Of a stretch of DNA of 27,551 bases, positions 3,463 through 25,672 are shown piece after piece. The notes beneath the pieces are model-generated. The model was not told the DNA's origin. It searched no databases and saw only the letters and a program-made list of their open reading frames with translations. The position numbers were made by a program, and so were the translations under genes. Source of the stretch: a virus; IMG/VR virus record IMGVR_UViG_3300045988_032611, positions 1-27,551 of that record. One strand, given 5' to 3'. How positions within the stretch are numbered: the stretch's first letter is position 1; every line of letters begins with the position of its first letter.

Positions 3463-3473
3463 CAGCGCACCTC

Positions 3474-9610: not shown

Positions 9611-10969
9611 TTATATCTCCCATATACGCGCATCCATCGTGAACGATGCCGTATTTTTGCACATGATAAGATTTTCGCCCGGACTGAGATAAGCGAACCT
9701 TGCAGTCACATTGCCGTCGGAATCCGTCACGGTCACATAACTATTCAGGTTGCTCCATCCGGGGGAGGTGATGTCTTCATCTTCGCTATTGATACATATC
9801 TCCTGACCGTTCATAGTATAATAGTAGTTGTACGAAAACTTAACATTGCGAGACACCCATGTTGTAGGCGATGCGTCAAGGTCATCGCATAAGATTATTT
9901 CGCAGTCTCCCTCGGTCCCTGATGGCAATGTTCCTGTAACCGCTGTTATCATCGGTTTTGCGATGTGGCTGGTAGGATTATCGAATATGCCGCCATATGC
10001 TGTATAGATATGGTCTGTCTCGACATATCCCTGTGTGCCGTCATTCAATTCAACCTTATACCATCCACTGCTCTCGGACAGAATCTTGAATGGTATGTTT
10101 GTGACGGTTCCAACTTGTGCACTGCTGGTACTCGCACTGCTGTAGACGGTTTGAAACTGAAAATTGGAACTTACGAGTCCATAACGTGTAGTCAGTGCCA
10201 CCGCCACCGATTTGTATCCATTCAGGAACCGCTCCGGTCTGCACCTGAAGCTGACCACTGCCCTGCCGAACTGGTTCCACGAATTGGCGATGTCAGTCGC
10301 ATCAACGAACACCGCCTCACGATAGTGTGTCGGGTCATATGTATCGGACAGCTCTGCGTAACTAGAAGCACTGTGGAGCCATTCCATGATATCTGTCCAT
10401 GCATCGCTGAATCGGCCTATGATGCGGCAGTCGACTGTAATCGGGTAGTTCGTGTACGCACTTCCGTCCAGCGACAGGATATATTTGACACGGTATTCGT
10501 CGTCAGTCGGAATATCAAATGTCTTTGTCCCCGTAAATGACAGCTCCGTGCTGATAGTAGTCCATGTGCCGCTGACTAACTGCTGAAGCTGATACTGCGC
10601 CGTCACGCGGTTGCCAGAGTCACCGAACACAAGTTCGAGCGTGCCCTTTTTAAGAATCGTGTTGTATGTCACATTCGCAGAATCCGCAAATGCACCGTGG
10701 TTGATGATATATCCTGTAGCTGTGCGTGTGAATTCCGTCCTCTGCATGTCTATCAGGTTAATGATATCCTCTGGCTCGCTCGCGAATATCTCATAGCTGA
10801 TCAGCTGTTCTTCCCACGCATCCTGCAATTTGTAGATGTTGCCGTTCCGTCCTGGGACGGTCGCGGCATCGTACTTACGTACTGGTCGGTTCAGTGCCCT
10901 GAATCGTTCTATCTTGATGCCGAACTCATCGGAGCTATGACCGTTAAATGTAAATGTGTGGTTAAGCAT
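9611..10969 (-). CDS. Distal tail protein (Dit, Sipho_tail-like) with internal insertions
   Basis: N-terminus FTFNGHSSDEFGIKIE. Also WLHSASSYAELSDTYDPTHYREAVF...VSFRCRPERF and C-terminal LSPGENLI. ATG at 10969 overlaps the tape measure stop (ATGCTTAA). Confidence 0.8.
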   Translation of the reverse strand: MLNHTFTFNGHSSDEFGIKIERFRALNRPVRKYDAATVPGRNGNIYKLQDAWEEQLISYEIFASEPEDIINLIDMQRTEFTRTATGYIINHGAFADSANVTYNTILKKGTLELVFGDSGNRVTAQYQLQQLVSGTWTTISTELSFTGTKTFDIPTDDEYRVKYILSLDGSAYTNYPITVDCRIIGRFSDAWTDIMEWLHSASSYAELSDTYDPTHYREAVFVDATDIANSWNQFGRAVVSFRCRPERFLNGYKSVAVALTTRYGLVSSNFQFQTVYSSASTSSAQVGTVTNIPFKILSESSGWYKVELNDGTQGYVETDHIYTAYGGIFDNPTSHIAKPMITAVTGTLPSGTEGDCEIILCDDLDASPTTWVSRNVKFSYNYYYTMNGQEICINSEDEDITSPGWSNLNSYVTVTDSDGNVTARFAYLSPGENLIMCKNTASFTMDARIWEI

Positions 10970-13472
10970 ATGTAGCCTCACTTCCTATCAGTTTCATTTG
11001 GAGCTTGTCGATGACATAGTCTGCCAGCTCGTTTTCGTTCATGCCTTCTGCGGCGTTGACGACTACGTTGATATTCTTCCCCCCGGCACTACGGATTGCC
11101 TGCGTGAACATCTTCATCAGGTGACTTTCGCCTACGACTACCTCATTGCCGGGCCGGTCACCGCCTACAAGCAACTGGTTGCCCATCGCCCCGAATATCG
11201 TCGGAGCGGACAGGATCATCGCTTGATCATATGCCTTTGCGAAGGTATAACGGCCTCCGGAGTACGGAGTGATCCTCGTGCTGCCGCCTTCACCGCTCAG
11301 TTCATAAGCTATCGAAGGAGCGGAGATGCTGACAGAGATCGGATTGCTCAGTGTGTTTGCTGTTGCCCAGAAATCGTTCTGCACGCTTCCGAACGCATTG
11401 GATGCATTCCTCTGCATCGTGTCAAGGTTGCCGTCCAGTGCGATGTCTACGTTCTTGCCCAGGTCTTCCCTGATGCTGTTGTAGTTGCTGGAGACGTTGT
11501 TTGTGGTCTCATCTGTCGCTTTGTCTACCAGACCGAGAGCCTCGCCGATGTTGTGCCAGGTCTTATTCCATGCATCGCCGACACTTCCGATCTCAGGGAT
11601 CAGAGTGCCGTCCATCAACTTACCGTTCTCCATCATGCCCATCTTGGCAAGATTGAACAGCCTTGACAGTTCGTCCTGTGTGGTCCTGGTGTCACCATAC
11701 AGACTCTTGAGTGTGCCGCTCGAATTTGTGATACCGCTTGAGAACTTGTCTACTTCGACCTTGCCTTTGCTGAAGACGTCTATCATCTGCCCGGCTTTTT
11801 TGGAACCGAAGACATCCTCAATGGTCATGCCGGTGTCGCCGATCGTCATGGACAGACCACTGAAACGGTCCTCTGCCCCTGCCATCGCTTCCATAGCAGC
11901 GTCCCATGCTCCACCGAGGTCATCGGTCTCGCCTGCCAGGTTCTTGACCGCCTGGTAAACAGCGGTAGTGATGTCTGAAGTGCTGCCGCCTGCGTCCTTG
12001 TATGCCACGAGGGTGGCGATTACGTCATCCATGTCCATGCCCAGTGACTGCCATGCTCCTGCCTGTGATGTCAGGGAGTTCATGACCTCCGAGCCTGTTA
12101 TGTTCGTGTCAGCCTGTGCGACAACGAGCTTGTCCATGATGGCAACGAGGTTGTCCACGTTCGTGGCATCGTCATCGGTCACCAGGCCCCACATCTTCAT
12201 GGTATCTACCAACTGGTTGGTAGCACTTACACCATCGACGCCCAGCATGTTCGCATATGAGCTGATCGCCGTTGTTGCGTTCTTGGCTTCTTCGCCTGTC
12301 AGGCCGAGTCGTGTGTTCAGTGTCGCAGTGATGCCGGAAACCTCTTCCAGGGATGCATCCTTGTCAGTCAGTGCGATGAATGCCTGTTCTGCTTTCAGCT
12401 TCAGTCCGTCCAGTGTGTCACCTGTCTGGAGTGTTGCTATCTGGATGTCATTGACTGCCTGTTCAAAGTCCATAGCAGCATTGTATACTTCAGTACCGAT
12501 ATCCTTTACGGCTGAAACGATAACACCTATCGCACCGGCAACACCTGCCTGGTCGATGGTATCAGCCATGCCCTGGATCGCAGGGAAGAACTGCCCCACG
12601 ATGCTGTCACTTGCGCTCTGGCCGACCTCGTTTGTCTTTTCGCTGATGCCCTGCATGCTTCCGGTCAGACTGTCTGCGGATGCTGTCGCTTCGTCCAGTC
12701 TCTGCTTGTTGGCAGCGAGGTTATCTGACAGGACCGATATCTGCCCGGCAAGCATCTCAGCCTGATCGGAGCCTTCACCAAATTCCAGGACGGCATCAAT
12801 GTAGCTGTCCCTCAGGGAGCTCAGTTCGTCTTCCTGGCTGGAGATCTCGCTTGTCAGTGATTCCAGTGCGCTCTGGGCTTCCCCTGTGCCCTGTGTGAGG
12901 CTGTCCGCTGCGCTTGTTACTTCCTCAAGGCGTGTCTGGTTCTCTTCCAGTTCCGTGGACAGGTTTGTTATCTCCTCAGCGAGGGCCTGTGCTTCCTCGG
13001 AATTCTCACCGAACTCGAGGGATGCGTTCATATACGCTTCCTTCAGGGATTCCAGCTCTGCGGACTGTTCCTCGATGACCGTGTTCAGCTGTCCGAGTGC
13101 TGAGTTCGCCTGTTCGGCTTCTTCCAGATGCGCTTCTATCTCTGCATTTGTTTTATTCAGTTCTGTCTGGGCTTTTGCGAGCGATTGCTCCCATTTCTGA
13201 CATTCGGTAGATGACTCGCCGAACTTATCGGCAGCCGCATCCACCATCTTCTGCATCATCTCAACTTCATCGTTGAGTTTTTCCGCCTTCTTCTGGAGCA
13301 ACTCCGTCTCTTTGGCATTCTTCTCCATCGCACTGGTCTCGTCAGTGAATGAACTCTTCAGTTCGTCCATCTGCTTGTCCAGCGTCTTTGTTGACTGGAT
13401 GATATTATTTAGTTGTTTTCGGTATTCGGCCTCACCGTCTATACCGAGTTTCACACCGATAGATGTAGCCAT
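10962..13472 (-). CDS. Tape measure protein
   Basis: 836 aa in the expected position after the chaperone genes. N-terminus GVKLGIDGEAEYRKQLNNI. Long coiled-coil, Ala/Glu-rich repeats. Confidence 0.9.
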   Translation of the reverse strand: MATSIGVKLGIDGEAEYRKQLNNIIQSTKTLDKQMDELKSSFTDETSAMEKNAKETELLQKKAEKLNDEVEMMQKMVDAAADKFGESSTECQKWEQSLAKAQTELNKTNAEIEAHLEEAEQANSALGQLNTVIEEQSAELESLKEAYMNASLEFGENSEEAQALAEEITNLSTELEENQTRLEEVTSAADSLTQGTGEAQSALESLTSEISSQEDELSSLRDSYIDAVLEFGEGSDQAEMLAGQISVLSDNLAANKQRLDEATASADSLTGSMQGISEKTNEVGQSASDSIVGQFFPAIQGMADTIDQAGVAGAIGVIVSAVKDIGTEVYNAAMDFEQAVNDIQIATLQTGDTLDGLKLKAEQAFIALTDKDASLEEVSGITATLNTRLGLTGEEAKNATTAISSYANMLGVDGVSATNQLVDTMKMWGLVTDDDATNVDNLVAIMDKLVVAQADTNITGSEVMNSLTSQAGAWQSLGMDMDDVIATLVAYKDAGGSTSDITTAVYQAVKNLAGETDDLGGAWDAAMEAMAGAEDRFSGLSMTIGDTGMTIEDVFGSKKAGQMIDVFSKGKVEVDKFSSGITNSSGTLKSLYGDTRTTQDELSRLFNLAKMGMMENGKLMDGTLIPEIGSVGDAWNKTWHNIGEALGLVDKATDETTNNVSSNYNSIREDLGKNVDIALDGNLDTMQRNASNAFGSVQNDFWATANTLSNPISVSISAPSIAYELSGEGGSTRITPYSGGRYTFAKAYDQAMILSAPTIFGAMGNQLLVGGDRPGNEVVVGESHLMKMFTQAIRSAGGKNINVVVNAAEGMNENELADYVIDKLQMKLIGSEATYA

Positions 13473-15455: not shown

Positions 15456-15765
15456 CGTAGAGATCCTCCAATCTTTCAAGAGTCAGCAGAACATCATCGC
15501 CCTGCACCTGCTTCAGACTGATACGGTACTGGTTGCCATCCTCAAGGATGCAGTATTCCGCATTCGCAGGAAGCGTGGTGTTATAAGCAATGACTAATTT
15601 GTCTATCTGCTGCTTTGCACCGAGTGCCGCGTAGGCGCGAGTGACGCCGACAGTCCGCTCGTCATAATATGCATCGCATATCTTGACCAGCTTCTCCGTC
15701 GGCATACGTCCTGTTGCAGCCACATTTGCCAGGCTGTAGATGGTGAGCAGTCCTGCGTCATGCAT
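15433..15765 (-). CDS. Head closure protein (head-tail adaptor, H_T_join-like)
   Basis: Assigned from position after the gp6-like connector. C-terminal pattern DGNQYRISLKQVQGDDVLLTLER. 8-nt overlap with the upstream gene. Confidence 0.6.
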   Translation of the reverse strand: MHDAGLLTIYSLANVAATGRMPTEKLVKICDAYYDERTVGVTRAYAALGAKQQIDKLVIAYNTTLPANAEYCILEDGNQYRISLKQVQGDDVLLTLERLEDLYDVSPESP

Positions 15766-16054
15766 CGCCGCTCACCTCCCTGTATTGCCTGGACATCAGG
15801 AGTTGTGATTTCTGTTCGTCATATGACGCTTTAAGACGGTCATATGTGCCGTCATCAGGTGTCCCGAAGTTCATCCTGCAGTAGGTCAGCACTGCACGTT
15901 TGACCAGCGGCAACGGCTCGGTGTTCAACAGGTCGGGACTGATGTCCGTGATGCCCAGATCCGCAAGCCCTGCACTGATCAGATCAGTCAATTCATTGTT
16001 GAAGGCGGTTGTCGTAACACGGCACGCAACCTTCACATCGTCAAGTAGTGCCAT
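15758..16054 (-). CDS. gp6-like head-tail connector (Phage_connect_1-like)
   Basis: LLDDVKVACRVTTTAFNNELTDLISAGLADLGITDI is typical of this family. Confidence 0.7.
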   Translation of the reverse strand: MALLDDVKVACRVTTTAFNNELTDLISAGLADLGITDISPDLLNTEPLPLVKRAVLTYCRMNFGTPDDGTYDRLKASYDEQKSQLLMSRQYREVSGDA

Positions 16055-16069: not shown

Positions 16070-16231
16070 TTATTTTTTTTTGGTCTTCTTTGCCGTTTTC
16101 GGCTCGTCGACCTGTTCCACCCACTTCATACGCATGAAAAAAGCCGCTGTGTCCTCATCAACTGTGAAGACCTCACCGGCTCTGAATATCTGCGCTCCGT
16201 AGATGATGTCATTGATCGCTTTTAGCTCCAT
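16070..16231 (-). CDS. Small protein with a basic tail (53 aa), absent from the ORF track
   Basis: GAGGTGA RBS, then MELKAINDIIYGAQIFRAGEVFTVDEDTAAFFMRMKWVEQVDEPKTAKKTKKK. It fills the gap between the GT2-like gene and the connector gene. Confidence 0.5.
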   Translation of the reverse strand: MELKAINDIIYGAQIFRAGEVFTVDEDTAAFFMRMKWVEQVDEPKTAKKTKKK

Positions 16232-16850
16232 CGTCGTCACCTCTGAAAGCCCTGAAGAACGTACCGTCCACCACGCTGTAGCCTACATGACCGCATTCCA
16301 CGGATGGATCGCACCAGATCTTGTATCCGCACTGTCTTGCTCTCCAGCAGAAAGCGACATCCTCTCCGTTCCTCCCGATCGGTGAGAACATCTGCTCGAA
16401 TTTGCTCTGCACATCGAAGAACACATCTGTTTTCATCAGCACACAGCCGAATCCGCATCCGCCAACCTCGAACAGTCCGTCCGGAATGCTCTGGAACTCG
16501 CTGTAATCCGCCTCAACGCCGTTGATCTCGAGTTTATCGAAGAGCACCGGCGAGTAAGGAGGGATCCGGCGGAAGTACAGACCAGTGACGATGTCGAGAT
16601 CCTTCTCGGTCATCACGCGAAGGAGGCGTGTCAGTGCATCCGCCGGAAACTGCATATCTGAATCCATCCAGAATACGTAGTCATATTCGTTCTGGATAGC
16701 TGTGATGGCCATGCTGTCCCTTGCCGCGTATATCAGTGCTCCGCTCTTCATCGTCAGCGAACAGCCTTCAGGCTTCTCCAGCTGTGTGAGCGAATAGCAG
16801 AACGGTACAGGCACCTGATCCATGCATGGCACGGCGATAAGTATCTTCAT
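16209..16850 (-). CDS. GT2-like (GT-A fold) glycosyltransferase, soluble
   Basis: MKILIAVPCMD..., DYVFWMDSDMQFP (DxD), DIVTGLYF, GCGFGCVLMK, GEDVAFCWRARQCGYKIW. No TM segment seen. AAGGAGAA RBS before the ATG at 16850. Confidence 0.8.
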   Translation of the reverse strand: MKILIAVPCMDQVPVPFCYSLTQLEKPEGCSLTMKSGALIYAARDSMAITAIQNEYDYVFWMDSDMQFPADALTRLLRVMTEKDLDIVTGLYFRRIPPYSPVLFDKLEINGVEADYSEFQSIPDGLFEVGGCGFGCVLMKTDVFFDVQSKFEQMFSPIGRNGEDVAFCWRARQCGYKIWCDPSVECGHVGYSVVDGTFFRAFRGDDDGAKSDQ

Positions 16851-16875
16851 TGGGCTTCTCCTTTCCTTGATGAAT

Positions 16876-18033
16876 TTACTTGGTGATCTTGACGAAAGCG
16901 TTAGGTGCAACTACGCCGAGACCGATGTACTGCTCGCCCATGATCTCGATAAGGTTCTGCTTCTTCAGGGTCAGGTTGTCGAATGTAAATTCAATGCCTT
17001 CGCCGTTCGGGAAGTTAGCAAGTGCGCCCTGATCGAGGTCGCCGACGATCACGTATGTGTCACCTGTGGAAGCTGCGCTGAATGCCTTGATGGTGCTGTT
17101 GAATACGACAGGCAGACCTTCGAACGGATCAGCTGCGTAGTTGGCACCATACTGGATTTCTTTAAACTTCGCATAGGACAGCTTGTTCATCATGATGACC
17201 GGATTAGCGGCTTCGTCTGACAGGTTAGCGATAGCAGTAGCGATCGTGCCCATGTCAGGTGATGTAACAGCGATCTTCGGAACACCTGGGCAGGTGGTAG
17301 TTGATACTGTGCCGCAGGCTACGATCTTGGCTACCAGTTCGTCAGCAGCCTTCTTTGCGATCCTGTAGGTCAGCTCATCATAGATGTATCTGATGAACGC
17401 TTCGCCGCGAAGTGAATATACTTCCTTGGACAGCTGTACGACTTTCTTGATGTACTCAGGAACGAGATTAGCTACGCCCAGTACAAGATCTTCAGTGCTG
17501 ATGGCAGATGCACCTTCTGCGTGTACGGTTGCGTCAGATCCGGAGATCTCGAAGCCAACTTTAAGGTTGCCGCGCAGGTATGCCTTGCGAACACGGCTCA
17601 TGATGCCTTCTTTGCTCCATGCGGTGCGGACTACATCATAAACGAGTTCCGGAACTGCTACGGTCGCTGTGCCGTTAGGCGTGGTGTCGTTCTCTGTGGT
17701 CAGCATGTTCCTGCACTCTGTCGGGTCGCCGTTCTTGATGTACTCAGCGAATGCGTCAATGTATTCAGCTGAGTTTCTGATTTCGATGTCGCTCATTGTT
17801 TTTCTTTCCTCCAATTTTTCAAAAGTCTCAATTGTTTCGCCAGCTCCCTCTGCAACTGCAGCGCGGATCTCGGCTCTCTTGGCCTCTTCGGCCTTACGTG
17901 CTTCCAGTTCCTCGTTGATGCCTTTCACTTCCAGTTCAAGAGCGTCAAGGTCTGCGCCTTCACTCTCAACCTCTTCGGTGATAGCACTCTTACGGAGCAG
18001 AAGCTCATCTGTGTTCATTTCTCTAAGTTCCAT
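16876..18033 (-). CDS. Major capsid protein, HK97 fold, with an N-terminal coiled-coil delta/scaffold domain
   Basis: It follows the prohead protease. The N-terminus is a Glu/Ala/Lys-rich coiled coil. The rest is a typical HK97-family body (…YIKKVVQLSKEV…ANYAADPFEGLPVVFN…). Confidence 0.9.
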   Translation of the reverse strand: MELREMNTDELLLRKSAITEEVESEGADLDALELEVKGINEELEARKAEEAKRAEIRAAVAEGAGETIETFEKLEERKTMSDIEIRNSAEYIDAFAEYIKNGDPTECRNMLTTENDTTPNGTATVAVPELVYDVVRTAWSKEGIMSRVRKAYLRGNLKVGFEISGSDATVHAEGASAISTEDLVLGVANLVPEYIKKVVQLSKEVYSLRGEAFIRYIYDELTYRIAKKAADELVAKIVACGTVSTTTCPGVPKIAVTSPDMGTIATAIANLSDEAANPVIMMNKLSYAKFKEIQYGANYAADPFEGLPVVFNSTIKAFSAASTGDTYVIVGDLDQGALANFPNGEGIEFTFDNLTLKKQNLIEIMGEQYIGLGVVAPNAFVKITK

Positions 18034-18034
18034 G

Positions 18035-18628
18035 TCAAACCTCCGTTAATAGTTTGATTTTCTGTTTCTGTCTCTCGCGCTTCTCCCGCTCCAGTCGCTC
18101 CGCTTTCTCTGCCTCGATCACTCCGTCGAGCCAGTCGCGAGTCGCCACGCTTAATTCAGTGTATGGATTAGCCGGGAAGGTGACTGGTGATACATCGAAC
18201 ACCTTGTCGATCTTCCGGATTATCCTCGTCCTTGTCTTCTTGTCATAATCGTCATCTGCGACGCGGAAGGCGAATGACATCTGCGGATAGTTGCCAGCCT
18301 TAATGTCTGCATAGATCTCTCTGGCCTTCTCTGTCCGGCTCAGATCCGTGCGGTTGCCGAGACCATGCTCGTCTGTCCATACTTCGAGTGAGCCTGCAGA
18401 AGTCCTTGCGTAGACCTTCCCTTCATGGTCAATACGAAAAACGACATCTGACAGATCTGCGTTGTCAAATGCCGTTGGTTCGATTCTCTCGAAGTAATCT
18501 TTTCCATCTATTGTCGCGAGCTTGTAGGTGTCGAAGGTGCTCGCGTAACCTTCCACGATGTAGTTCGGCTCTTCCTCTGACGGCTGAATCCGAAGTTCCA
18601 TCGTCCTGTATTCTCTTGTATCTGGCAT
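18035..18628 (-). CDS. Prohead protease (HK97 family, S78/U35)
   Basis: YIVEGYASTFD...DHEGKVYAR...QMSFAFRV...VSPVTFPANP. ATG 18628 has better SD spacing than 18634, which overlaps the GT8 stop as ATGA. Confidence 0.85.
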   Translation of the reverse strand: MPDTREYRTMELRIQPSEEEPNYIVEGYASTFDTYKLATIDGKDYFERIEPTAFDNADLSDVVFRIDHEGKVYARTSAGSLEVWTDEHGLGNRTDLSRTEKAREIYADIKAGNYPQMSFAFRVADDDYDKKTRTRIIRKIDKVFDVSPVTFPANPYTELSVATRDWLDGVIEAEKAERLEREKRERQKQKIKLLTEV

Positions 18629-18630
18629 TT

Positions 18631-19305
18631 TCATACCTCCATAGCTTCATATTTCTTGACTAATGGTTTGTTTATCCAGTCATGCACCAGCTGTCCTGCG
18701 TAGTGTATGATTACAGGCTTTTTGTCTGTCGGTGCTGACCAGTAATGCACGTTGTATTCCGGCGGAAACTCCAGTATCTTCCCCCTGCACAGCTCGTTCG
18801 TCGCATCCTGCTCCAGAAACGCAAAATACCTGCTGTTGAGCGCATCGATTATTTTGTCTGCCATGCCGTCCCTCATCTTCTTGAGGTTGTACATGATCAC
18901 GCCCATGTTGACATAGATGTCACTGCCGCTCTTGTCCGGCTCCCTTCCGCCTGCAAGATAGTAGTCATCCAGCGGTAGTTCCCAGAGTTCAGAGATATCG
19001 CCGTCAACGATAGTATCGCAGTCCAGTGACAGCACTCTGTCCTCTTCCAAGTAGTAGCAGAGCGTTGTCCGCATCATCGCCATATAAGTGAAGGTCGGAT
19101 TGCCATAATTCAAACTGCCGACAGGGAAATACTGCTGGTCACTCACGTTGATGACTTTTATCTTCGAATGCTCAAACGGATACTCATCATCCTCTATCAG
19201 CAGGTAGACCGTATCAACGTCACTGTTCGCCAGCAGACTCTTGATCGGTGCTATCGTCGACTGGTACAGGTTCCTCGTCATGCAGTACGCTGCCGCCTTC
19301 TTCAT
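18631..19305 (-). CDS. GT8-like (retaining, GT-A fold) glycosyltransferase, soluble
   Basis: AAYCMTRNLYQ, LSLDCDTIV (DxD), NMGVIMYNLKKMR, PVIIHYAG. GGAGGT RBS. The start lies 86 nt inside the portal 3' end. Confidence 0.8.
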   Translation of the reverse strand: MKKAAAYCMTRNLYQSTIAPIKSLLANSDVDTVYLLIEDDEYPFEHSKIKVINVSDQQYFPVGSLNYGNPTFTYMAMMRTTLCYYLEEDRVLSLDCDTIVDGDISELWELPLDDYYLAGGREPDKSGSDIYVNMGVIMYNLKKMRDGMADKIIDALNSRYFAFLEQDATNELCRGKILEFPPEYNVHYWSAPTDKKPVIIHYAGQLVHDWINKPLVKKYEAMEV

Positions 19306-20461
19306 CGCCTACCTCCGAAACTTTTTCGTCTGCGTTCCAATATTCTCCACGGATAATACGCACATCTCCGCCCTCGACAGGCGGAAGGTTCCATATCTCC
19401 CTTGCGCCATTTATGCTTATGATGCCTCTGTCCAATAGCTGGGCAGATACATTCAGTTTTTCGTTATTGCTCAAATACTGCAGTCTGTTCGCAGTCGCCA
19501 TGACCTCGTTGCCCTGACTGCGCTCACGCAGAGTGAACAGCATTTTCGTCACAACCTCGCTGAACTGGATGGCGAACGGCTCGATCGCGCCTTCATAGAA
19601 TGCCGTCCATGCATCGCCGTATGCCCTGTTCAGCAGTATGTCTTCATTCACGCCGAAGTATTCATAAACGGATTCGTTGATTATCTTCATCTGATCCGCA
19701 TCGATGACCCACGGCTTGACATCTATCTGTTTGATGTCCTTGTAGGTATTTGGAAAGAGCAGGAGACCGCCGCCCTGTGCATCACGGCTGAAGTTCTTCT
19801 CCGTGAAGTCCTGACGTTCCTTCACAAGGTCTTCCGCCTTCGTGAAGTTCGCTACCTGCGCCATGAAGCGGTATGTGGCTGCGCTCTTGACACCTTCCTG
19901 TATGCCTTCGTTCTGGATGTGGATGAGATCCATCGTCGGTGCCAGCGCTTCGTTGTTCTCGCCGAAGAAGTCATTCCGCAGCTGGTACTTTGTCATGATT
20001 CCGCAGTTGGCCAGCTCTATCGCCGCATGATTACCCCATCCGAACTCGTAGCGCAGATAAGGGATATTTTTCACCGCCACGATTTCGCACTTCCGCGGAA
20101 TCGGAGTAAATATTCCCAACACTGCCCCGAACTCATCATAGATCGGCGTAATGAATGCCGTGTTGTAGACATCCAGTATGCTGCAGAGCCTGTACATGAA
20201 TTGGCTCCAAGTCTGGAATTGGTTCGGCGCATGTTTCAATTTCGCCTGAAGCGACGGTCTTGCCGCGCCGAGCACCTCCACACGGAGCTTGCTCACATGC
20301 GTCGCCCTTGCGTTGATCGCCGCCCTGACCAGCTGTGCCTCGTAGATAGATCCGCGCCATGACGTGAAGCGCGGAACATATCCATCCAGCATTCTGAATG
20401 TTTCTTCAGCTTCAATTTTCACTTTTGGCCTGTTTTTAAACAGGCTGTCGAAAAGTCCCAT
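19220..20461 (-). CDS. Portal protein (HK97-type Phage_portal family)
   Basis: 413 aa. SIYEAQLVRAAINARATHVSKL. The size and position fit a portal. Acidic C-terminal tail. Confidence 0.88.
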   Translation of the reverse strand: MGLFDSLFKNRPKVKIEAEETFRMLDGYVPRFTSWRGSIYEAQLVRAAINARATHVSKLRVEVLGAARPSLQAKLKHAPNQFQTWSQFMYRLCSILDVYNTAFITPIYDEFGAVLGIFTPIPRKCEIVAVKNIPYLRYEFGWGNHAAIELANCGIMTKYQLRNDFFGENNEALAPTMDLIHIQNEGIQEGVKSAATYRFMAQVANFTKAEDLVKERQDFTEKNFSRDAQGGGLLLFPNTYKDIKQIDVKPWVIDADQMKIINESVYEYFGVNEDILLNRAYGDAWTAFYEGAIEPFAIQFSEVVTKMLFTLRERSQGNEVMATANRLQYLSNNEKLNVSAQLLDRGIISINGAREIWNLPPVEGGDVRIIRGEYWNADEKVSEVGDEEGGSVLHDEEPVPVDDSTDQESAGEQ

Positions 20462-20473: not shown

Positions 20474-21109
20474 TTACGCGAACAGGGTCTTGCCTGTCGG
20501 CAGTGTTAATTTATATACGTACACATCAAATTTGTCGTTGATGGTCAGCGTGTTGGTCGAGTTATATCGCTGTCTTATAGTCACCGTTCCGCTTGAGTTG
20601 ATCGAGTAGCCATACACGCCATACGAGCCGGTAGCAGTCGTATAGGCTCCGCTTGAACTTACTCGGATATACTCGACTGCCGGCGCGGAGAACGTGGAAG
20701 TTCCGCCGTTCGCCTTCTGATGGTTGACAAATATCGTGTCCGAACCGTAGAAATAGCCATTACGTTTGCCTGACTGTCCACGGATATGCACCCAGATGAC
20801 AGCGTCCTTCGTGTATGCGTCTGAACCACAGGCGATCGTTCCTGCGGAAGCGGCAGAAGTGGAAGTCGTGTTGATCGTCAGCGTTGTTGAGCCGAGCAAA
20901 GTCCAGTTAGATGTGCCACCGCCTGAAGACGTGCCCTGTGTCCGCACGCCTGCAGAAGTATAGAAATACTTTCCGCTCGCCACATCCGCAGCTGCCGCCG
21001 TTGTGTCCGTGACATCAGTGAAAGACGCTGTGCCTCCACCTGTCTTGGGAAGTGTCACTGCAGGGACGTTCGAATACGATGCGCCCATTAAAGTTATATT
21101 TTGTGCCAT
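20474..21109 (-). CDS. Ser/Thr/Gly-rich structural-type protein, 'MAQN' paralogue B (211 aa)
   Basis: N-terminus MAQNITLMGASYSNVPAVTLPKTGGGTASFTD...GKYFY is about 45% identical by eye to the N-terminus of 21120-21524. Confidence 0.65.
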   Translation of the reverse strand: MAQNITLMGASYSNVPAVTLPKTGGGTASFTDVTDTTAAAADVASGKYFYTSAGVRTQGTSSGGGTSNWTLLGSTTLTINTTSTSAASAGTIACGSDAYTKDAVIWVHIRGQSGKRNGYFYGSDTIFVNHQKANGGTSTFSAPAVEYIRVSSSGAYTTATGSYGVYGYSINSSGTVTIRQRYNSTNTLTINDKFDVYVYKLTLPTGKTLFA

Positions 21110-21119
21110 AGCGCACCTC

Positions 21120-21524
21120 CTATGAGATGCTCAGAACCTTGGTCGTGCTGTCCTGTGATATGGTCGGAAGCGACAGGCTGCCCGAAACTCCCAGAAGGGT
21201 CACTCCGCTCTTAATGTTTGACGCGATGATCTTCGCCTGTTCCGTCGAGCTGATGGAGACCGTTCCGCCAGACGTATATCCGGCAGGGATCGAGACCGTG
21301 CCCGCCTTCGTGGAGATCGTTCCGCTCGTTGAGCCGTTGTTTACCATTCCGCCGCTGACGGAGCCGCTTGAGCTGTAGCCGGTCTTGCCTGTCAACACGT
21401 CTGCGCTTGTGATGTCTGCGCCGGACGTGTCATAAAACTTTGCTGTTCCACCGCCGGAGAGCGGGATGTCCACCTCGGGGACGTTCTGGTATGTGACGCT
21501 ATTAATTACTACATTCTGAGCCAT
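21120..21524 (-). CDS. Ser/Thr/Gly-rich structural-type protein, 'MAQN' paralogue A (134 aa)
   Basis: MAQNVVINSVTYQNVPEVDIPLSGGGTAKFYD...GKTGY...STEQAKIIASNIKSGVTLLGVSG. From memory, this motif set recurs in fibre-like proteins of Clostridia phages. Confidence 0.65.
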   Translation of the reverse strand: MAQNVVINSVTYQNVPEVDIPLSGGGTAKFYDTSGADITSADVLTGKTGYSSSGSVSGGMVNNGSTSGTISTKAGTVSIPAGYTSGGTVSISSTEQAKIIASNIKSGVTLLGVSGSLSLPTISQDSTTKVLSIS

Positions 21525-21535
21525 TTTTTATCTCC

Positions 21536-21796
21536 TCATGAAACTGTAAGTGTTGACCCGTTCCATGTAATCAAGCCGTAGTTGCTCGGAATGGGGTCAA
21601 TGGTTATGTTTTCGGACAGGACAAGCCCCGCCGTTGCTATCGTCTGTGATTGCGACGAAGGCGTGAACTCGTACTCGCCGTGATATTTGTCGTTCGCGAT
21701 GACCGAGTCAAAAGCCGCGTTAAAAAAGCCGGCATCTTCCCCGAAACCGACCGTGAAATTTGACTCATCCGAAAATACGATATTGAACGATGCCAT
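21536..21796 (-). CDS. Small structural-type protein (86 aa)
   Basis: YHGEYEFTPSSQSQTIATAGLVLSENITIDPIPSNYGLITWNGSTLTVS. ATGA overlap with the upstream gene. Confidence 0.55.
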   Translation of the reverse strand: MASFNIVFSDESNFTVGFGEDAGFFNAAFDSVIANDKYHGEYEFTPSSQSQTIATAGLVLSENITIDPIPSNYGLITWNGSTLTVS

Positions 21797-22107
21797 CAGA
21801 TGACACCTTCCTTCAATATCTGCTGGACTGTCGCAGGCACGACATTGGATGCTACAACCCTGCCGTCGCTGAACCTTGCACGTATCTGGATGTAGACCGT
21901 GCTCGTGCTGAACGCCAGAGTCTCTTCCTGCGTCAGCCCGATGGTCAGCGTGTATCTGTCATCGTCAGTAGTGCCGAACGTGATGTCGTCCTTCGTCTTC
22001 TCGATGACGACCGCACCGTCCTGCTTGTACGTGATGTAGATGACATCCGCGTCGCTCAGGTCAAGTGCCGTCGTGAATGTATTCGTCGGTGTAGTTCCTC
22101 TGTACAT
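21796..22107 (-). CDS. Small beta-rich protein (103 aa), possibly an Ig-like decoration protein
   Basis: MYRGTTPTNTFTTALDLSDADVIYITYKQ...TLTIGLTQEETLAF...VYIQIRARF. GAGGAG RBS immediately after the TerL stop. Confidence 0.55.
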   Translation of the reverse strand: MYRGTTPTNTFTTALDLSDADVIYITYKQDGAVVIEKTKDDITFGTTDDDRYTLTIGLTQEETLAFSTSTVYIQIRARFSDGRVVASNVVPATVQQILKEGVI

Positions 22108-22109
22108 GT

Positions 22110-23897
22110 CTACTCCTCATTTATCAATCTGCCCCCGATTTCGGGGAACCATTTCTGTCGGACACAGAACGCATCTGCCAGTGCCGCGACACCGTCGATG
22201 TGTGCGTCCTTGTGTATCTTTACCAGCCTGCCGCGCCCACGCTCGACATCCATCTTGATGGCGGCGTTCAGCATGTGCACCTTCAGCAGGTCATTGTCTC
22301 CAATATGTATCTTGCCATCCCTTAACAGGCCTTCCATCTCCTGCAGCACAGGCCAGAGGTTATTCCCCTGATATACGTCATCGCATTTAAAGCCATACGC
22401 CTCCAGATCCTGCACAAGATACTGCGCTGAGTATCTGTCATAACCGACAGCCAGCGGAAGTATCTCGTACTCTTCCACCAGGCTTCTCAGCCAGTCATAA
22501 CAATCATGGTAGTCGATGAAGTTCTCTCCCGACGGAGCAAGCAAGCCTCTTTTGATATATATATCGTAAGGGAGACCGTCCCTGGCTGTCGCTTCCTCGA
22601 TCTTCTCCGCCGGGAGCCAGAACTTGGCAAAAACGTACAATTCTCCTTCTTTTTCTATGACCACGGTTGCCGCTGTGAGGTCTGTGGTCTGTGACAGGTC
22701 GATGCCTGCCACGCAGTATTTGCTCCTAAACTTCTCCAGCTTCAAAGGCGGTCCGCTTGCTTTCTCGATGACTTCTGACGGAAGCCATGCAAGTGAACTG
22801 TTCTGCTTGAGGTTCGAGTATTTAGTGATGAACTCCCGCTTTTTGCTCAAGGAGCCTTCAGCGATGGCAATCTCTTCCAGAAGGTAGTCAACAGACACGC
22901 TGACACCCAGATTAGGATTGCTCTTCCTCAGCTCGTTGATATCATTCCACTTGTCGATATCATCAATCATGTACAAAAAAGGCAGCAGCCTTGTCTCTTT
23001 GCTGTTGCCTGTTAAGAATGACGTAGATCTCTTGACCAGTTCGTCGTAGATGCCGTCATTGATATAGCCTGCTGTCGAACATGACAGAAGGATGGAAGGA
23101 TTGTCACCCATCTCCCTGGCACCCATGCCCGACTTCATGACTTCGTATTGCTTCAAACCTGCATCGCCCTGCCATGAAGCTATCTCATCACAGATAGTCA
23201 GCGATGGATTGAAGCCGTCTGACTTCTTTGCGCTGAATGCTATCTTCTTGATGACCGAATTCGTGCCGGTTATCGTCAGGCCTTCGCGTTTGTGCTTTGC
23301 CAGCATCTCGTCGCTCATCTGTCTGGCGTTGTGAATGTTCTTGCTTGCGTCAATCTCCTCACGCAGGTTCTGCCAGTCAGGATCTAACTCTGTCATATGC
23401 CAGACGGAACTATACACAAGGTCAGCCTGCTCCAACTTCGGAGCGATGCAGTATATCCTTGAGCCGTAACCTCCGTCCACATACCAGATGTATTTCGCGA
23501 TGGCAGCTGCGAACAGTGTCTTGCCGTTCTTCCTGGCTACTACCAGGAGCACTTCACGGAACTGCCGCTTGCCTTTTGCGTCCGTGATGCCGAAGATACA
23601 GCTGACGATTGCCTTCTGCCATACTTCCAACTTCAGATAGCTCGGCGCGAGCGGTCCTTCCGTATGAAATGAGTGCGCTTCTATCCACTCAATCGCATCG
23701 TTTGCCTTCTTCTGGTCGAACTTGAACGTGCCGTCCTCGAGTTTCGCGATAATGTAGTCATATAAAAGCTCTATCCATCTGCCTACCGTGACAGAACCAT
23801 TTTTAATTTGCTGGTAGTAAGCATAGATGTAATTATCTTTTAGCTTCTTCGCCATACTTTCATTAAGTCGCTCTCGTTTGCGGGAAAAGATATCCAA
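22110..23897 (-). CDS. terL: Terminase large subunit (Terminase_1 family)
   Basis: ATPase motif LVVARKNGKTLFAAAIA. ...ICDEIASW (Walker B-like). C-terminal nuclease region ...GIDLSQTTDLTA...IDGVAALADA. The start is uncertain: TTG at 23897 or ATG at 23855. Confidence 0.92.
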   Translation of the reverse strand: MDIFSRKRERLNESMAKKLKDNYIYAYYQQIKNGSVTVGRWIELLYDYIIAKLEDGTFKFDQKKANDAIEWIEAHSFHTEGPLAPSYLKLEVWQKAIVSCIFGITDAKGKRQFREVLLVVARKNGKTLFAAAIAKYIWYVDGGYGSRIYCIAPKLEQADLVYSSVWHMTELDPDWQNLREEIDASKNIHNARQMSDEMLAKHKREGLTITGTNSVIKKIAFSAKKSDGFNPSLTICDEIASWQGDAGLKQYEVMKSGMGAREMGDNPSILLSCSTAGYINDGIYDELVKRSTSFLTGNSKETRLLPFLYMIDDIDKWNDINELRKSNPNLGVSVSVDYLLEEIAIAEGSLSKKREFITKYSNLKQNSSLAWLPSEVIEKASGPPLKLEKFRSKYCVAGIDLSQTTDLTAATVVIEKEGELYVFAKFWLPAEKIEEATARDGLPYDIYIKRGLLAPSGENFIDYHDCYDWLRSLVEEYEILPLAVGYDRYSAQYLVQDLEAYGFKCDDVYQGNNLWPVLQEMEGLLRDGKIHIGDNDLLKVHMLNAAIKMDVERGRGRLVKIHKDAHIDGVAALADAFCVRQKWFPEIGGRLINEE

Positions 23898-23941: not shown

Positions 23942-24253
23942 CTATCGTATCTCAACACGCCCGAGCGCATCGACAGTGTAGCGCTTCAGTCTCTTGCGGT
24001 GCATATCGCCGTGACACTGTCGGCACAAGAGCTCAAGGTTATCGAAGCTCAGCGATACCGTAGCGTCGTTAACGTTGATTGCATCGAGGTGCTTCTTGTG
24101 ATGCACTATCTCTCCCGGAACGATGCGTCCCTTCTTGAGGCAGTGTTCGCATAGTCCGCCGACAGACTTGGCGTAAGCATCTCTGCAGGCCTTCCACTGT
24201 TCAGTTTTGTAAAACCAATCAACGACCGCCATCTGTAGACCTGTCTTCATCAC
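23942..24253 (-). CDS. HNH endonuclease (packaging-associated type)
   Basis: CEHC...VHHKKHL...N...LCRQCH is an HNH zinc-finger motif. The gene lies directly upstream of TerL. Confidence 0.88.
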   Translation of the reverse strand: MMKTGLQMAVVDWFYKTEQWKACRDAYAKSVGGLCEHCLKKGRIVPGEIVHHKKHLDAINVNDATVSLSFDNLELLCRQCHGDMHRKRLKRYTVDALGRVEIR

Positions 24254-24905: not shown

Positions 24906-25613
24906 TTATGGTCTTCCTGCCATGCGCCACATAATCGTGCAGAACTGTGCACGTGTGAGCGGCTGACTCGGACGGAACGTGCCGTCCTTGTATCCCTGCA
25001 CATATCCCTGTGATGCCATCCACTCGATAGCCCTGTATGCGGACATGTCCGGTGTGACATCAGTGAATGTCTTCAGCAGTTTGGTCACGTTGCTCGCTAT
25101 GTCTCTCATGCGTTCCTCCAGATACTGTCCCGGACATGATGTAGCTGCGAACCACTTGTGCAGTGTCATGTACATCACGTCTGGATCTGTGCCGTAGTGT
25201 GTTTCAAATTCGTCCCATGTCGGATACCAGAGCAGTTTGTTTTTGGAGTTCCTCTGGCAGATATCCGTGCACAGTGTGAGCAGTGACATGTACGCGATGT
25301 CGTTGACCGCATACGGATAGTAGTTGTCCGATGCCGTCTCAATGGTTATCGCGCGGTTGTCGTTCCATGACGATGAACTGCACCAACTGCGGTTAGCCTC
25401 GTCAACATACTGCCCGATGCGTCCGTCATATCCGATGCCGTAATTGCTCGATGCCTGACGTGACGGATTGGCGAAGACATCGCCCAAAGCCTCTACGGAA
25501 CACTGCCCGACCACCATATGGATGGTGATGATGTCGATAGCGTTCCTGCGCTGCCCGGAGTTGTTCGGCGACCACTTAACGTAGTCGACCAGACTGCTGT
25601 TACTCATCGTCAT
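24906..25613 (-). CDS. Endolysin: N-acetylmuramoyl-L-alanine amidase (Amidase_2/PGRP-like) plus a single C-terminal SLH domain
   Basis: IDIITIHMVVG...SSNYGIGYDGRIGQYV...ATSCPG indicates an amidase. FTDVTPDMSAYRAIEWMASQGYVQGYKDGTFRPSQPLTRAQF matches the SLH consensus. I place the start at ATG 25613. Confidence 0.85.
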   Translation of the reverse strand: MTMSNSSLVDYVKWSPNNSGQRRNAIDIITIHMVVGQCSVEALGDVFANPSRQASSNYGIGYDGRIGQYVDEANRSWCSSSSWNDNRAITIETASDNYYPYAVNDIAYMSLLTLCTDICQRNSKNKLLWYPTWDEFETHYGTDPDVMYMTLHKWFAATSCPGQYLEERMRDIASNVTKLLKTFTDVTPDMSAYRAIEWMASQGYVQGYKDGTFRPSQPLTRAQFCTIMWRMAGRP

Positions 25614-25672
25614 CGTCCCCTTTCCCATTGCACAGCTCCTGTGCGGTCTCATCGGTAGCGTCAGGTATCAGG

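Follow-up and report, generated by a model that had tools for sequence, protein, structure and literature searches.

Two glycosyltransferase genes lie among the head genes of a small, temperate phage, and the locus raises the question of what their products modify: the virion, the host envelope, the phage DNA or host proteins. The window, by which we mean the whole stretch of DNA analysed (27,551 nucleotides), is complete, as the initial annotation had taken it to be. Comparison of the contig ends shows bases 1–119 to be identical to 27433–27551, so that the sequence closes into a circle of 27,432 bp. We infer a host among the Bacillota (Clostridia), in the gut or rumen.

Two enzymes within the late head operon

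The operon has the order portal, GT8, protease, major capsid protein, GT2, connector, with both glycosyltransferase (GT) genes translationally coupled within it. On the minus strand, the portal gene (19220..20461; PF04860, E = 1.2e-23) is followed by that of a 224-residue GT8-family glycosyltransferase (18631..19305). The ATG of the latter, at 19305, precedes the portal stop (19220) by 86 nt and overlaps the stretch coding for the acidic C-terminal tail of the portal protein; its Shine–Dalgarno sequence as read from the DNA, GGAGGT (19311..19316, minus strand), likewise falls within the last part of the portal gene. Its TGA shares an ATGA with the start of the S78 prohead serine protease gene (18035..18634, minus strand; PF04586, E = 2e-31), and the gene for an HK97-fold major capsid protein of 385 residues follows (16876..18033, minus strand; PF05065, E = 1.3e-11; phrog_10). 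The next gene encodes a GT2-like, minimal GT-A glycosyltransferase. Its mechanically called reading frame (16209–16910) opens with TTG, but translation most likely begins at the ATG at 16850 (213 residues; 16209..16850, minus strand), because this codon has AAGGAAAGGAG 8 nt upstream and stands 25 nt after the capsid stop; this apparent Shine–Dalgarno sequence (16858..16868, minus strand) falls within the 25-nt gap. A 53-residue reading frame (16070..16231, minus strand; weak match to phrog_2616), whose first 23 nt, from the ATG on, overlap the end of the GT2-like gene, precedes the head–tail connector gene (15758–16054), which is homologous to PF24829 proteins of relatives. All that the initial annotation had read from the sequence here, including the GT8 start buried in the portal gene, the stop fused to the protease start and the motifs listed below, agrees with our own reading.

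Promoter-like sites are not in excess (16, compared with 12.9 ± 3.5 in shuffled sequence), none stands directly upstream of either GT gene, and no terminator-like site flanks either of them, including between the capsid and GT2-like genes. Expression of the GTs in the lysogen is unlikely, given their place in a late structural operon, the overlapping start and stop codons and the lack of a promoter-like site before either gene. Among the larger reading frames, Pfam, PHROG and NCBIfam scans identified an integrase, Sak4, an SSB-like protein, a PDDEXK nuclease, an endolysin with an SLH domain, a holin-like protein and HNH, and found no GtrA/B-like protein, DNA methyltransferase, TET/5mYOX or thymidylate-synthase-like protein; nor did the genome scans find a membrane GT, flippase or polyprenol transferase. 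The unannotated reading frames, of at most about 215 residues, are all too short to hide a gene of the Gtr, methyltransferase, TET or ThyS type. The machinery of Gtr-type O-antigen conversion and of DNA hypermodification is thus missing from the genome, as had been claimed.

The family assignments proposed for the two proteins were borne out by profile and fold comparisons. The GT8 protein (motifs AAYCMTRNLY, LDCDTIV, NMGVIMYNLKKMR and IIHYAG) matches PF01501 (E = 2.2e-16; 60.6 bits, cut-off 24.3), and its AlphaFold2 (AF2) model (pLDDT 96.9) has LgtC, GlyE and WbbM as top Foldseek matches (TM 0.71–0.75), with glycogenin-2 also among them. Residues D95 and D97 (the DxD motif), Q166, D167 and H201 are invariant across 40 homologues. 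The GT2-like protein (ILIAVPCMD, WMDSDMQFP, GCGFGCVLMK, GEDVAFCWRA) exceeds the cut-offs of PF13506 (E = 2e-7) and PF00535 (E = 3.8e-6) and matches phrog_1574 (E = 3.5e-22) and phrog_12406, annotated ‘glycosyltransferase’; D63 and D65 (DxD), E163 and D164 are invariant. In both enzymes the catalytic residues are all unchanged in homologues at 45–70% identity. The AF2 model of the GT2-like protein (pLDDT 89.5) has as its best PDB fold match A197 of Sulfolobus turreted icosahedral virus (STIV; PDB 2C0N; Foldseek E = 4e-10, TM 0.65/0.72, r.m.s.d. 2.8 Å). Further matches (ppGalNAc-T2, COLGALT1, LH3 and mimivirus R699) are protein-directed GT-A enzymes, a trend that is only suggestive because GT-A folds match many enzymes. 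As the initial annotation had noted, neither protein has a transmembrane-like segment (maximum 19-residue Kyte–Doolittle means of 0.87 for GT8 and 1.41 for GT2). With profile, modelled fold and conserved residues in agreement, the two count as soluble, bona fide GT-A glycosyltransferases.

A near-core GT2 and a rare GT8

With the capsid protein as the query, synteny was surveyed around its 80 closest relatives, 76 of which have room downstream of the capsid gene. In 69 of these 76 loci the next gene is a GT2 gene, and in the other seven the capsid stop abuts the connector gene; GT2 in this slot is near-core in the lineage. The GT8 gene is much rarer. All eight carriers in the lineage (the window, L002, L085, L099 and L330–L333) also have GT2, making GT8 a rare accessory that occurs only alongside it. 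What had been described as a pair of enzymes hard-wired into the head operon is thus correct as to their place, and is better described as a near-core GT2 with an occasional GT8.

In 14 other loci GT8 adjoins the same GT2 family. Elsewhere, one head module has the order SPP1-type portal, MuF, GT2 (PF00535), GT8, scaffold, capsid, and another has VG15, GT2, GT8, DUF4355 scaffold, capsid; in a further locus (L005) GT8 comes after a capsid gene of the Phage_cap_E type. The combination of GT8 with another GT beside scaffold and capsid genes recurs in at least two unrelated head-module types. The GT8 family as a whole is not dedicated to capsids, because its members also occur among nucleotide-metabolism genes or next to TagF-like enzymes.

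A Thr/Ser-rich capsid loop as candidate acceptor

The capsid protein gives a colinear hhalign match to HK97 gp5, and a PDB sequence search with it returned no match. Just past the spine helix it has the loop A239-C-G-T-V-S-T-T-T-C248 (17290..17319, minus strand), in which GT-x-S-T-T-T spans residues 241–247 and which we predict to be an O-glycosylation site. In a set of 145 unique capsids, 124 of the 135 encoded beside GT2 have the loop core T-x-[ST]-T, as does 1 of the 10 without GT2 (Fisher p = 2.6e-8, a statistic that ignores phylogeny). The GT2-less capsids represent about seven lineages, of which six have lost the motif and one (L195) keeps it without GT2; the strict core is absent from 11 capsids with GT2. 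At matched overall identity, loop identity is 0.69–0.87 between capsids that both have GT2 and 0.19–0.58 between capsids with and without it, and the divergence is restricted to the loop, the two flanking helices being conserved. The Thr-rich loop is therefore a likely site of sugar attachment, provided that it is exposed on the outer surface of the head. It aligns to HK97 residues of about 237–247, in an hhalign alignment of low probability.

HK97 and other HK97-fold capsids, for which glycosylation is not known, are also somewhat rich in Thr and Ser at this position. The capsid C terminus reads ...AFVKITK and has no tail like the glycan-bearing C-terminal tails of mycobacteriophages.

The substrate of the two enzymes and its precedents

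We consider it somewhat more probable than not that both enzymes are active and O-glycosylate a structural protein of the virion, with the major capsid protein as the most likely acceptor, GT2 as the initiating enzyme and GT8 as the extending one. Structural proteins are the best-supported reading of the substrate, favoured by the near-core GT2 slot, by the way in which GT2 and the capsid loop co-vary and by the occurrence of GT8 with a second GT in other head modules. The GTs would be made in the cytoplasm late in infection, together with the head proteins. The GT2-like enzyme, of an inverting family, would be translated from the capsid transcript straight after the capsid protein, and would move a first sugar from a host nucleotide-sugar to Thr or Ser of the loop G241-T-V-S-T-T-T247, either before the prohead assembles or while it does so. 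Where it is present, in a minority of genomes, GT8, of a retaining family, would add a second, alpha-linked sugar to this primer. The outcome would be a capsid bearing hundreds of short glycans, which could change antigenicity, adhesion to mucus or surfaces, protease resistance or re-adsorption to host debris. The choice of acceptor protein and site, the sequence in which the enzymes act, the sugars and the advantage to the phage are our inference; the disaccharide that the initial annotation had suggested is consistent with the restriction of GT8 to genomes with GT2 (8/8) and with the 14 adjacent loci, and a virion glycosylation system is a prediction.

Acceptors elsewhere on the virion, such as the Ser/Thr/Gly-rich, fibre-like proteins at 20474–21524, the tail tube or the tape measure, would leave the place in the head operon to be explained by timing or dosage, and we think this unlikely. 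Two of the Ser/Thr/Gly-rich proteins, o134 and o211, have 28–32% Ser + Thr and are members of a very large family, of 3,803 proteins, in the same phage group, and the closest characterized structural relative of GT8 after LgtC is GlyE, the second-best profile and fold match (PDB 5GVV). GlyE, of the pneumococcal PsrP serine-rich-repeat pathway, extends an O-glycan already primed on Ser or Thr of a protein, the serine-rich repeat adhesin. Like the window GT8 it is a soluble cytoplasmic GT8 enzyme, from a Gram-positive bacterium; unlike it, GlyE has 406 residues with an extra C-terminal domain, and works in a pathway in which the GT-B pair GtfA/B does the priming and which is tied to SecA2/Y2 export. 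The window encodes neither GtfA/B nor SecA2/Y2. Mycobacteriophage glycans, in the accounts given in PMC11600133 and PMC12619734, are found on both the capsid and the tail tube. However, the o103-o86-o134-o211 cassette follows the distal tail gene Tal in the GT8-carrying relative L099, and so appears in the window as a relocated tail-distal cassette; in three GT8-carrying relatives TerL abuts the portal gene, with no Ser/Thr/Gly-rich genes in the gap. These proteins, named as candidate substrates by the initial annotation, thus show no coupling to GT8 in position or presence, whereas GT2 abuts the capsid gene and co-varies with its loop.

Equally doubtful is the proposal that the GTs modify a host envelope glycopolymer (a secondary cell-wall or teichoic-acid-like polymer, or capsule) or an S-layer glycan precursor in the cytoplasm, for late receptor destruction, to keep progeny off debris or for superinfection exclusion. 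GT2 and GT8 are classic families of polysaccharide and LPS biosynthesis, and the best NCBIfam matches are LPS and EPS enzymes, though far below cut-off. The phage is temperate, the SLH domain of its endolysin implies that the host has an S-layer and wall polymer, and in other phages the GT8 family adjoins or is fused to CDP-glycerol glycerophosphotransferase domains. Against this, a membrane anchor, a flippase and a polyprenol transferase are all lacking, expression in the lysogen is unlikely from a late structural operon, and neither the fixed, near-core slot nor the loop co-variation is expected of a receptor-modifying moron. Protein-glycosylating effectors and glycogenin also belong to GT-A and GT8-like folds, in keeping with the glycogenin-2 match, and a place inside the assembly operon would suit an assembly factor; yet action on host cytoplasmic proteins, or co-option of catalytically idle proteins for head assembly, is very improbable, as invariant catalytic residues argue against an idle role, late expression is ill-suited to host takeover and the comparative data point to the capsid loop and to no host target. 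Least probable of all is glycosylation of the phage DNA, despite the same enzymatic logic in phage DNA-hypermodification clusters, where a GT-A enzyme begins the glycan and a GT8-like enzyme attaches further sugars (Pyle et al., bioRxiv 10.1101/2023.12.21.572611), and the presence of some GT8 homologues among nucleotide kinase, Thy1, DNA methylase and PAPS-reductase genes. In those clusters the acceptor is 5hmC and the GTs lie beside C5-MT/5mYOX or ThyS, whereas C5-methyltransferase, 5mYOX/TET and thymidylate-synthase-like hydroxymethylase are all missing from the complete 27.4-kb genome, so that its DNA would offer no hydroxyl acceptor; the GT genes are in the head module and not the replication module, and the co-variation is with a capsid loop.

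Glycosylation of the virion, the reading that we prefer, has precedents. According to the accounts of Freeman et al. (2023, Cell Host Microbe 31:1216) in PMC11256854, PMC11600133 and PMC12619734, phage GTs glycosylate the virions of mycobacteriophages Che8, Corndog and Myrna, where, in the host cytoplasm, soluble enzymes attach O-linked glycans to subunits of the capsid and the tail tube, which is the principle proposed here. Those hosts are Actinobacteria and not the presumed Clostridia; the F1 phages carry their GT genes near the right genome end (PMC11256854) and not interleaved with head genes, and the acceptors are C-terminal tails (PMC12619734) rather than a predicted internal capsid loop. 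The window system is minimal by comparison, with one or two enzymes and no methyltransferase, and is a prediction, whereas glycosylation in mycobacteriophages was shown experimentally. Cluster J mycobacteriophages (Omegavirus) carry 8–10 genes, with roles stated as unknown, between the capsid and head–tail connector genes (Pope et al. 2013, PMC3706429). Among them, Thibault gp11 is a GT2 homologue (27% identity over 95% of the query) directly 3′ of the major head protein gene, in the same slot before the connector; the Cluster J genomes, of about 110 kb, have five GTs as well as a kinase and a methyltransferase, compared with one GT in this slot in the window and a second between portal and protease. 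GTs embedded in a head module thus have a precedent, and any claim to novelty is tempered by Cluster J and by Freeman et al. STIV, whose capsid protein is glycosylated and whose GT A197 is essential (PMC10551542), is an archaeal virus with a double-jelly-roll capsid, unlike the window phage. A197 and the GT2-like protein share only 18% sequence identity, although both are virus-encoded GT-A domains of about 200 residues without extra domains, and the link of A197 to capsid glycosylation is itself a proposal.

The locus is thus a candidate for an embedded, minimal form of virion glycosylation by GT2, with or without GT8, as predicted from gene content. If this is true, glycosylation of phage particles would extend beyond the mycobacterial phages in which it has been demonstrated.

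Glycosyltransferase genes in the head operon of a complete phage genome

The first 119 bases of the window (1-119) are an exact direct repeat of the last 119 (27433-27551), so the assembly is closed and circular and the genome is complete, with a unique length of 27,432 bp; a DUF551-like ORF of ~155 amino acids spans the circle junction. Nearly all genes lie on the minus strand. These include a late operon with genes for an HNH protein (23942-24253), TerL (22110-23897), a cassette of four small ORFs (o103, o86, o134 and o211; 20474-22107), the portal (19220-20461; PF04860), the GT8 protein (18631-19305; PF01501), an S78 prohead protease (18035-18634), the HK97-type major capsid protein (16876-18033; PF05065), the GT2-like protein (16209-16850; PF13506 and PF00535), a 53-amino-acid protein and the head-tail connector (15758-16054), and the tail genes for the tape measure (10962-13472), Dit-like (9611-10981) and Tal-like (8084-9607) proteins. 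A tyrosine integrase gene on the plus strand (6596-7654) marks the phage as temperate. Compared at the DNA level with 50,697 phage records, the head region gave no match, and thus there is no cultured close relative.

Both glycosyltransferase genes are tightly embedded, as the initial annotation had described. GT8 begins with an ATG at 19305, 86 nt inside the portal gene and preceded by GGAGGT, and its stop shares ATGA with the protease start. The GT2-like gene follows the capsid gene directly and most likely starts 25 nt past the capsid stop, with the ATG at 16850 and a strong Shine-Dalgarno sequence in front of it; the next ORF overlaps its 3' end. Promoter-like sites were not enriched (16 versus 12.9 +/- 3.5 in shuffled sequence), and a scan found no terminator-like sites flanking either gene.

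Homologous contigs in GTDB are mostly whole phages of 24-30 kb that were binned into metagenome-assembled genomes (MAGs). Most of the MAG labels are Clostridia and some are Alloprevotella, Nanosyncoccaceae or Bacteroidetes, so that a Clostridia host can be assigned only tentatively. Because these labels are inconsistent, the best host clue in the genome is the endolysin (24906-25652, minus strand), in which Amidase_2 is followed by a C-terminal S-layer-homology (SLH) domain; this domain implies a host with an SLH-anchoring secondary cell-wall polymer.

Two further minus-strand genes were noted. The ORF at 742-1314 (190 amino acids) has an N-terminal DUF7666 and then a tail of ~90 residues made of Gly-Asn, Gly-Tyr and Gly-Asp dipeptide repeats (GNGNGYGNG...), and its antisense frames form long (AT)n- and (RQ)n-like pseudo-ORFs. 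The gene at 1600-2247 encodes a predicted lipoprotein of 215 amino acids with a lipobox signal and an N terminus that resembles Cor-type superinfection-exclusion proteins (phrog_1119), and is a more conventional candidate for lysogenic conversion or exclusion than the glycosyltransferases.

Two predicted nucleotide-sugar transferases

Every GT8 and GT2-like motif quoted in the initial annotation was found in the sequence, and the family and GT-A fold assignments held in searches of profiles (PF01501, PF13506 and PF00535, all above cut-off) and of structures (AF2 models compared by Foldseek). The GT8 protein matches PF01501 over residues 67-205 with 60.6 bits (cut-off 24.3; E 2.2e-16), and a profile of 40 homologues matches WbbM, GlyE and LgtC at E values of 1e-12 to 2e-14. 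Its AF2 model (pLDDT 96.9, pTM 0.93) aligns with LgtC, GlyE and WbbM, its first, second and third best PDB matches, at a Foldseek probability of 1.0 and TMq of 0.71-0.75. D95-x-D97, Q166-D167 and H201 are invariant in the 40-sequence alignment, and D95, D97 and H201 are probably equivalent to LgtC D103, D105 and H244. The profile score, the GT-A Rossmann-like fold and the DxD motif with a C-terminal His ligand together place the protein in CAZy family GT8 (PF01501). It has 272 relatives; tblastn against cultured phages gave only six weak matches, and no PHROG profile matched it. GlyE is the GT8 enzyme in the glycosylation pathway of pneumococcal serine-rich-repeat proteins. The GlyE resemblance is the only feature of such a locus that holds for the window, as the GtfA/GtfB priming pair of GT-B enzymes and the accessory Sec genes (SecA2/Y2) are absent from the genome.

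The GT2-like protein is more divergent in its profile matches, with 31.1 bits to PF13506 (cut-off 21.7) and 27.4 bits to PF00535 (cut-off 23.3), the latter covering residues 57-97 only; among PHROG profiles it matches phrog_1574 (E 3.5e-22) and phrog_12406, 'glycosyltransferase' (E 1e-15). All of the 277 PDB matches of its AF2 model (pLDDT 89.5) at E<=1e-3 in Foldseek are GT-A enzymes. The top match is STIV A197 (E 4e-10, rmsd 2.8 A), and the next are polypeptide GalNAc-transferase 2, collagen galactosyltransferase, LH3 and mimivirus R699, all of which are protein-directed GT-A enzymes. In STIV, A197 is essential and the capsid protein is glycosylated, although a link between the two has only been proposed (PMC10551542). 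D63-x-D65 and E163-D164 are invariant in the GT2-like protein, D164 being the probable catalytic base. With a GT-A fold that carries DxD and an acidic base, and scores above the curated Pfam thresholds, the protein is, on profile and model grounds, a divergent member of PF00535/PF13506, a GT-A group of the inverting type. Its relatives number more than 2,300, mostly on metagenomic contigs of 25-30 kb.

Neither protein contains a transmembrane-like segment, in agreement with the initial annotation. Taken together, the profiles, folds and invariant catalytic residues indicate that both should be active, soluble nucleotide-sugar transferases. In 30 homologues of the GT2-like protein (66-85% identity), eight cysteines (C9, C132, C136, C168, C174, C180, C186 and others) and H188 are also invariant. 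Such conservation is uncommon in a cytoplasmic GT-A enzyme and suggests that the protein holds a structural metal site or disulfides.

Distribution of the two genes among related and unrelated phages

Loci fetched through the glycosyltransferases are biased towards carriage of these genes, and so loci were also retrieved through the capsid protein alone, which has more than 400 relatives in IMG/VR. The GT2-like gene lies immediately behind the capsid gene in 69 of the 76 capsid-retrieved loci with enough downstream sequence, and the remaining 7 have the connector gene directly at the capsid stop. GT8 lies between the portal and protease genes in only 1 of 72 loci. Every genome of the lineage with GT8 that we examined also has GT2 (the window and the comparison loci L002, L085, L099 and L330-L333). 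From this pattern we consider the GT2-like gene to be a near-core gene of the head module, and GT8 a rare accessory that depends on GT2 in gene content.

The cassette of small ORFs varies in position within the same lineage. Its Ser/Thr/Gly-rich products, o134 and o211, are paralogous over an N-terminal module (~60 amino acids, 43% identity); the o211 family comprises 3,803 proteins and has neither a Pfam domain nor a PDB relative, and o211 itself gave no match in the PDB or in phage records. The cassette lies between the TerL and portal genes in the window and L002 and behind the distal tail gene Tal in L099, and TerL directly abuts the portal gene in three genomes with GT8. This placement gives it the appearance of a tail-distal, fibre or receptor-binding module that was relocated into the packaging and head region of the window. 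In L333, a relative with GT8, the gap between TerL and portal (2265-5355) instead encodes a 678-amino-acid metallophosphoesterase, a 258-amino-acid protein and an 86-amino-acid protein with a weak match to CBM_5_12 (chitin- or carbohydrate-binding), and this difference in cargo marks the junction as an insertion hotspot in the lineage.

Outside the window lineage, GT8 is directly adjacent to a gene of the same GT2 family in 14 loci. A second glycosyltransferase occurs within four genes of GT8 in 25 of 63 unique loci, and a recognized head gene within the same distance in at least 22 of the 63, a lower bound that reflects a limited seed set. The idea that GT8 is always in head modules was rejected on these counts, as other copies occur among nucleotide-metabolism genes or small ORFs. 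Two architectures recur: SPP1-type portal, MuF, GT2 (PF00535), GT8, scaffold and capsid (Phage_capsid_4); and VG15, GT2, GT8, DUF4355 scaffold and capsid. Recurrent upstream neighbours of GT8 (about 550, 215 and 335 amino acids) had been considered as portal, scaffold and capsid. This assignment was also rejected, because the 335-amino-acid protein is a GT2 by Pfam and the module reads portal-MuF-GT2-GT8-scaffold-capsid. In another phage (L005), GT8 and GT2 lie behind a Phage_cap_E capsid gene. In locus L156 (5662-7335, plus strand), a single protein joins GT8 to a CDP-glycerol glycerophosphotransferase (TagF-like) domain. The gene for this fusion has those for a VG15 head protein and GT2 on one flank and those for the scaffold and capsid on the other. 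In several other loci, GT8 has separate TagF-like genes as neighbours. These arrangements hint at a glycerol-phosphate-containing, teichoic-acid-like modification linked to heads or capsid coats. Many GT8 homologues from IMG/VR (L113-L184) sit amid small ORFs and genes for nucleotide kinase, Thy1, C5 DNA methylase, PAPS reductase and DUF4406, a setting that, by analogy, fits 'second sugar' enzymes of DNA-hypermodification clusters (Pyle et al., bioRxiv 10.1101/2023.12.21.572611). GT8 enzymes seem to have been put to use on different acceptors.

The capsid loop as a candidate acceptor

The capsid alignment contains a strongly conserved segment, A-C-G-T-V-S-T-T-T-C (residues 239-248; DNA 17290-17319, minus strand), which links the spine helix to the one that follows it. 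We pooled all retrieved capsids (145 unique sequences) and found the loop core T-x-[ST]-T in 124 of 135 capsids with the GT2-like gene behind them (GT2+) versus 1 of 10 without it (GT2-; Fisher p = 2.6e-8, kinship ignored). The ten GT2- capsids represent about seven lineages, one of which keeps the motif. For this reason an automated search found no capsid column that strictly separates the two groups, and we used motif-level and matched-identity analyses. Loop identity among GT2+ pairs is 0.69, 0.78 and 0.87 at overall identities of 50-60%, 60-70% and 70-85%, respectively; for pairs of one GT2- and one GT2+ capsid the corresponding values are 0.19, 0.27 and 0.58. When GT2- capsids are compared pairwise with their nearest GT2+ relatives, divergence is limited to the loop and a variable stretch just after it, and both flanking helices are nearly identical.

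A capsid profile search of the PDB gave no match. An hhalign comparison with HK97 gp5 is colinear at only 9.9% probability and puts the loop where the A-domain begins, near residues 237-247 of HK97. The HK97 capsid is also moderately Thr/Ser-rich at this position, so composition alone proves nothing.

A parallel in gene order exists in mycobacteriophages. Homologues of the window GT2 occur in 35 mycobacteriophage records, and those listed are Cluster J-type genomes. In the Cluster J phage Thibault, the homologue, gp11 (27% identity, covering 95% of the query), is encoded directly behind the major head protein, as in the window, and genes for a kinase, a methyltransferase and further glycosyltransferases come next, ahead of the head-tail connector. 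Pope et al. (2013) remarked on this insertion and gave its role as unknown (PMC3706429). The Thibault capsid protein gp10 (7510-8874 of its locus) has a Thr/Ser-rich stretch, SGSNSGNQVKGVRTGTKTTVTATDTGS, in the inter-helix region equivalent to the GTVSTTT loop, which may, anecdotally, mark the same kind of acceptor site. The initial annotation was not aware of a glycosyltransferase pair within a head module that had been characterized in a Bacillota-type siphophage. Our literature search found no report of capsid glycosylation in Bacillota phages, an absence within the literature searched and not proof of absence, but the Cluster J insertion is a documented counterpart of the gene arrangement.

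In the literature searched, only some mycobacteriophages are shown to have particles glycosylated by phage enzymes, and there the modification shields virions from antibodies. According to papers that cite Freeman et al. (2023) (PMC11256854, PMC11600133 and PMC12619734), glycosyltransferases of other mycobacteriophages put O-glycans on the C termini of capsid and tail-tube subunits. As in those systems, the window has phage-encoded glycosyltransferases placed for expression with structural genes. It differs in belonging to a Bacillota-type gut and rumen lineage, in having one or two enzymes with genes interleaved among head genes, and in its predicted internal-loop acceptor. Neither the capsid (...APNAFVKITK) nor the tail tube (...ALKTKLGIS) ends in a Ser/Thr-rich tail; if the capsid is glycosylated, the predicted site is the internal loop 241-247.

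The analysis shows what the enzymes are, that they are soluble, how their genes are embedded in the operon, the near-core synteny of GT2, its co-variation with the loop and the dependence of GT8 on it in gene content; the acceptor, the order of action, the sugars and the benefit are inferred. The most likely reading, which we hold with moderate confidence, is O-glycosylation of the capsid, for which the co-variation of GT2 with the capsid loop is the indirect evidence. The GT2-like enzyme, made stoichiometrically downstream of the capsid protein, would prime Thr/Ser residues of loop 241-247 with a sugar from the host nucleotide-sugar pool, and GT8, from a retaining family, would add a second sugar where present; the predicted modified peptide is IVACGTVSTTTCPGVPK. 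Glycosylation of other virion proteins is unlikely by comparison. The initial annotation had named the Ser/Thr/Gly-rich proteins at 20474-21524 as candidates beside the capsid, and we reject these as specifically coupled substrates on synteny, since their cassette lies behind Tal in L099, is missing from the gap between TerL and portal in three genomes with GT8 and shows no coupling to GT8; they are possible substrates with no specific support.

Modification of a host wall or S-layer glycan we also consider improbable. Gtr-type conversion relies on a membrane flippase (GtrA), a polyprenol-phosphate (bactoprenol) glucosyltransferase (GtrB) and an integral-membrane glycosyltransferase (GtrC) near the attachment site, whereas the window enzymes lack transmembrane segments and are encoded in the head operon, and scans of the complete genome turned up no Gtr families. 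Action on host proteins, or an assembly role without catalysis, would be a considerable surprise. The main conceptual rival is DNA glycosylation, as the clusters of Pyle et al. use the same two-step logic, in which a GT-A initiator and a GT8-like extender act on a different acceptor, 5hmC. We regard it as the most remote of the alternatives, because the complete genome lacks any enzyme able to create a hydroxymethyl acceptor: in agreement with the initial annotation, the closed 27.4-kb genome has no C5-MT, 5mYOX/TET or ThyS-like hydroxymethylase, and family scans of the remaining ORFs, of which the unannotated ones are at most ~215 amino acids, found no Gtr-like, DNA-methyltransferase, TET-like or thymidylate-synthase-like proteins.

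The association of glycosyltransferases with capsid genes is real and widespread. A wider reading, which we offer tentatively and as somewhat less than an even bet, is that temperate siphophages with genomes of ~27 kb, from gut and rumen Clostridia and represented by hundreds of contigs, form a large, previously unrecognized lineage in which the HK97-fold capsid carries sugars on a Thr-rich internal loop. A near-core minimal GT-A enzyme would attach them, with a GT8 extender added in sub-lineages, and GT8/GT2 insertion beside scaffold and capsid genes would have arisen independently in several types of head module. On this reading, capsid glycosylation is a common trait of phages of the animal gut and not peculiar to actinobacteriophages. 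The mycobacteriophage precedent is known; what is new is the prediction of phage-encoded virion glycosylation in a Bacillota-type gut and rumen lineage, by a minimal system that consists of a 213-amino-acid enzyme, an acceptor loop of ten residues and, optionally, a second enzyme of 224 amino acids. If true, sugar-coated capsids would occur in an abundant group of phages from the gut and rumen, modified capsid peptides would be missed by virome proteomics searches, and the finding would bear on the engineering of therapeutic phages and capsid nanoparticles, on the persistence of phages in mucus and on their escape from immune recognition in animals.
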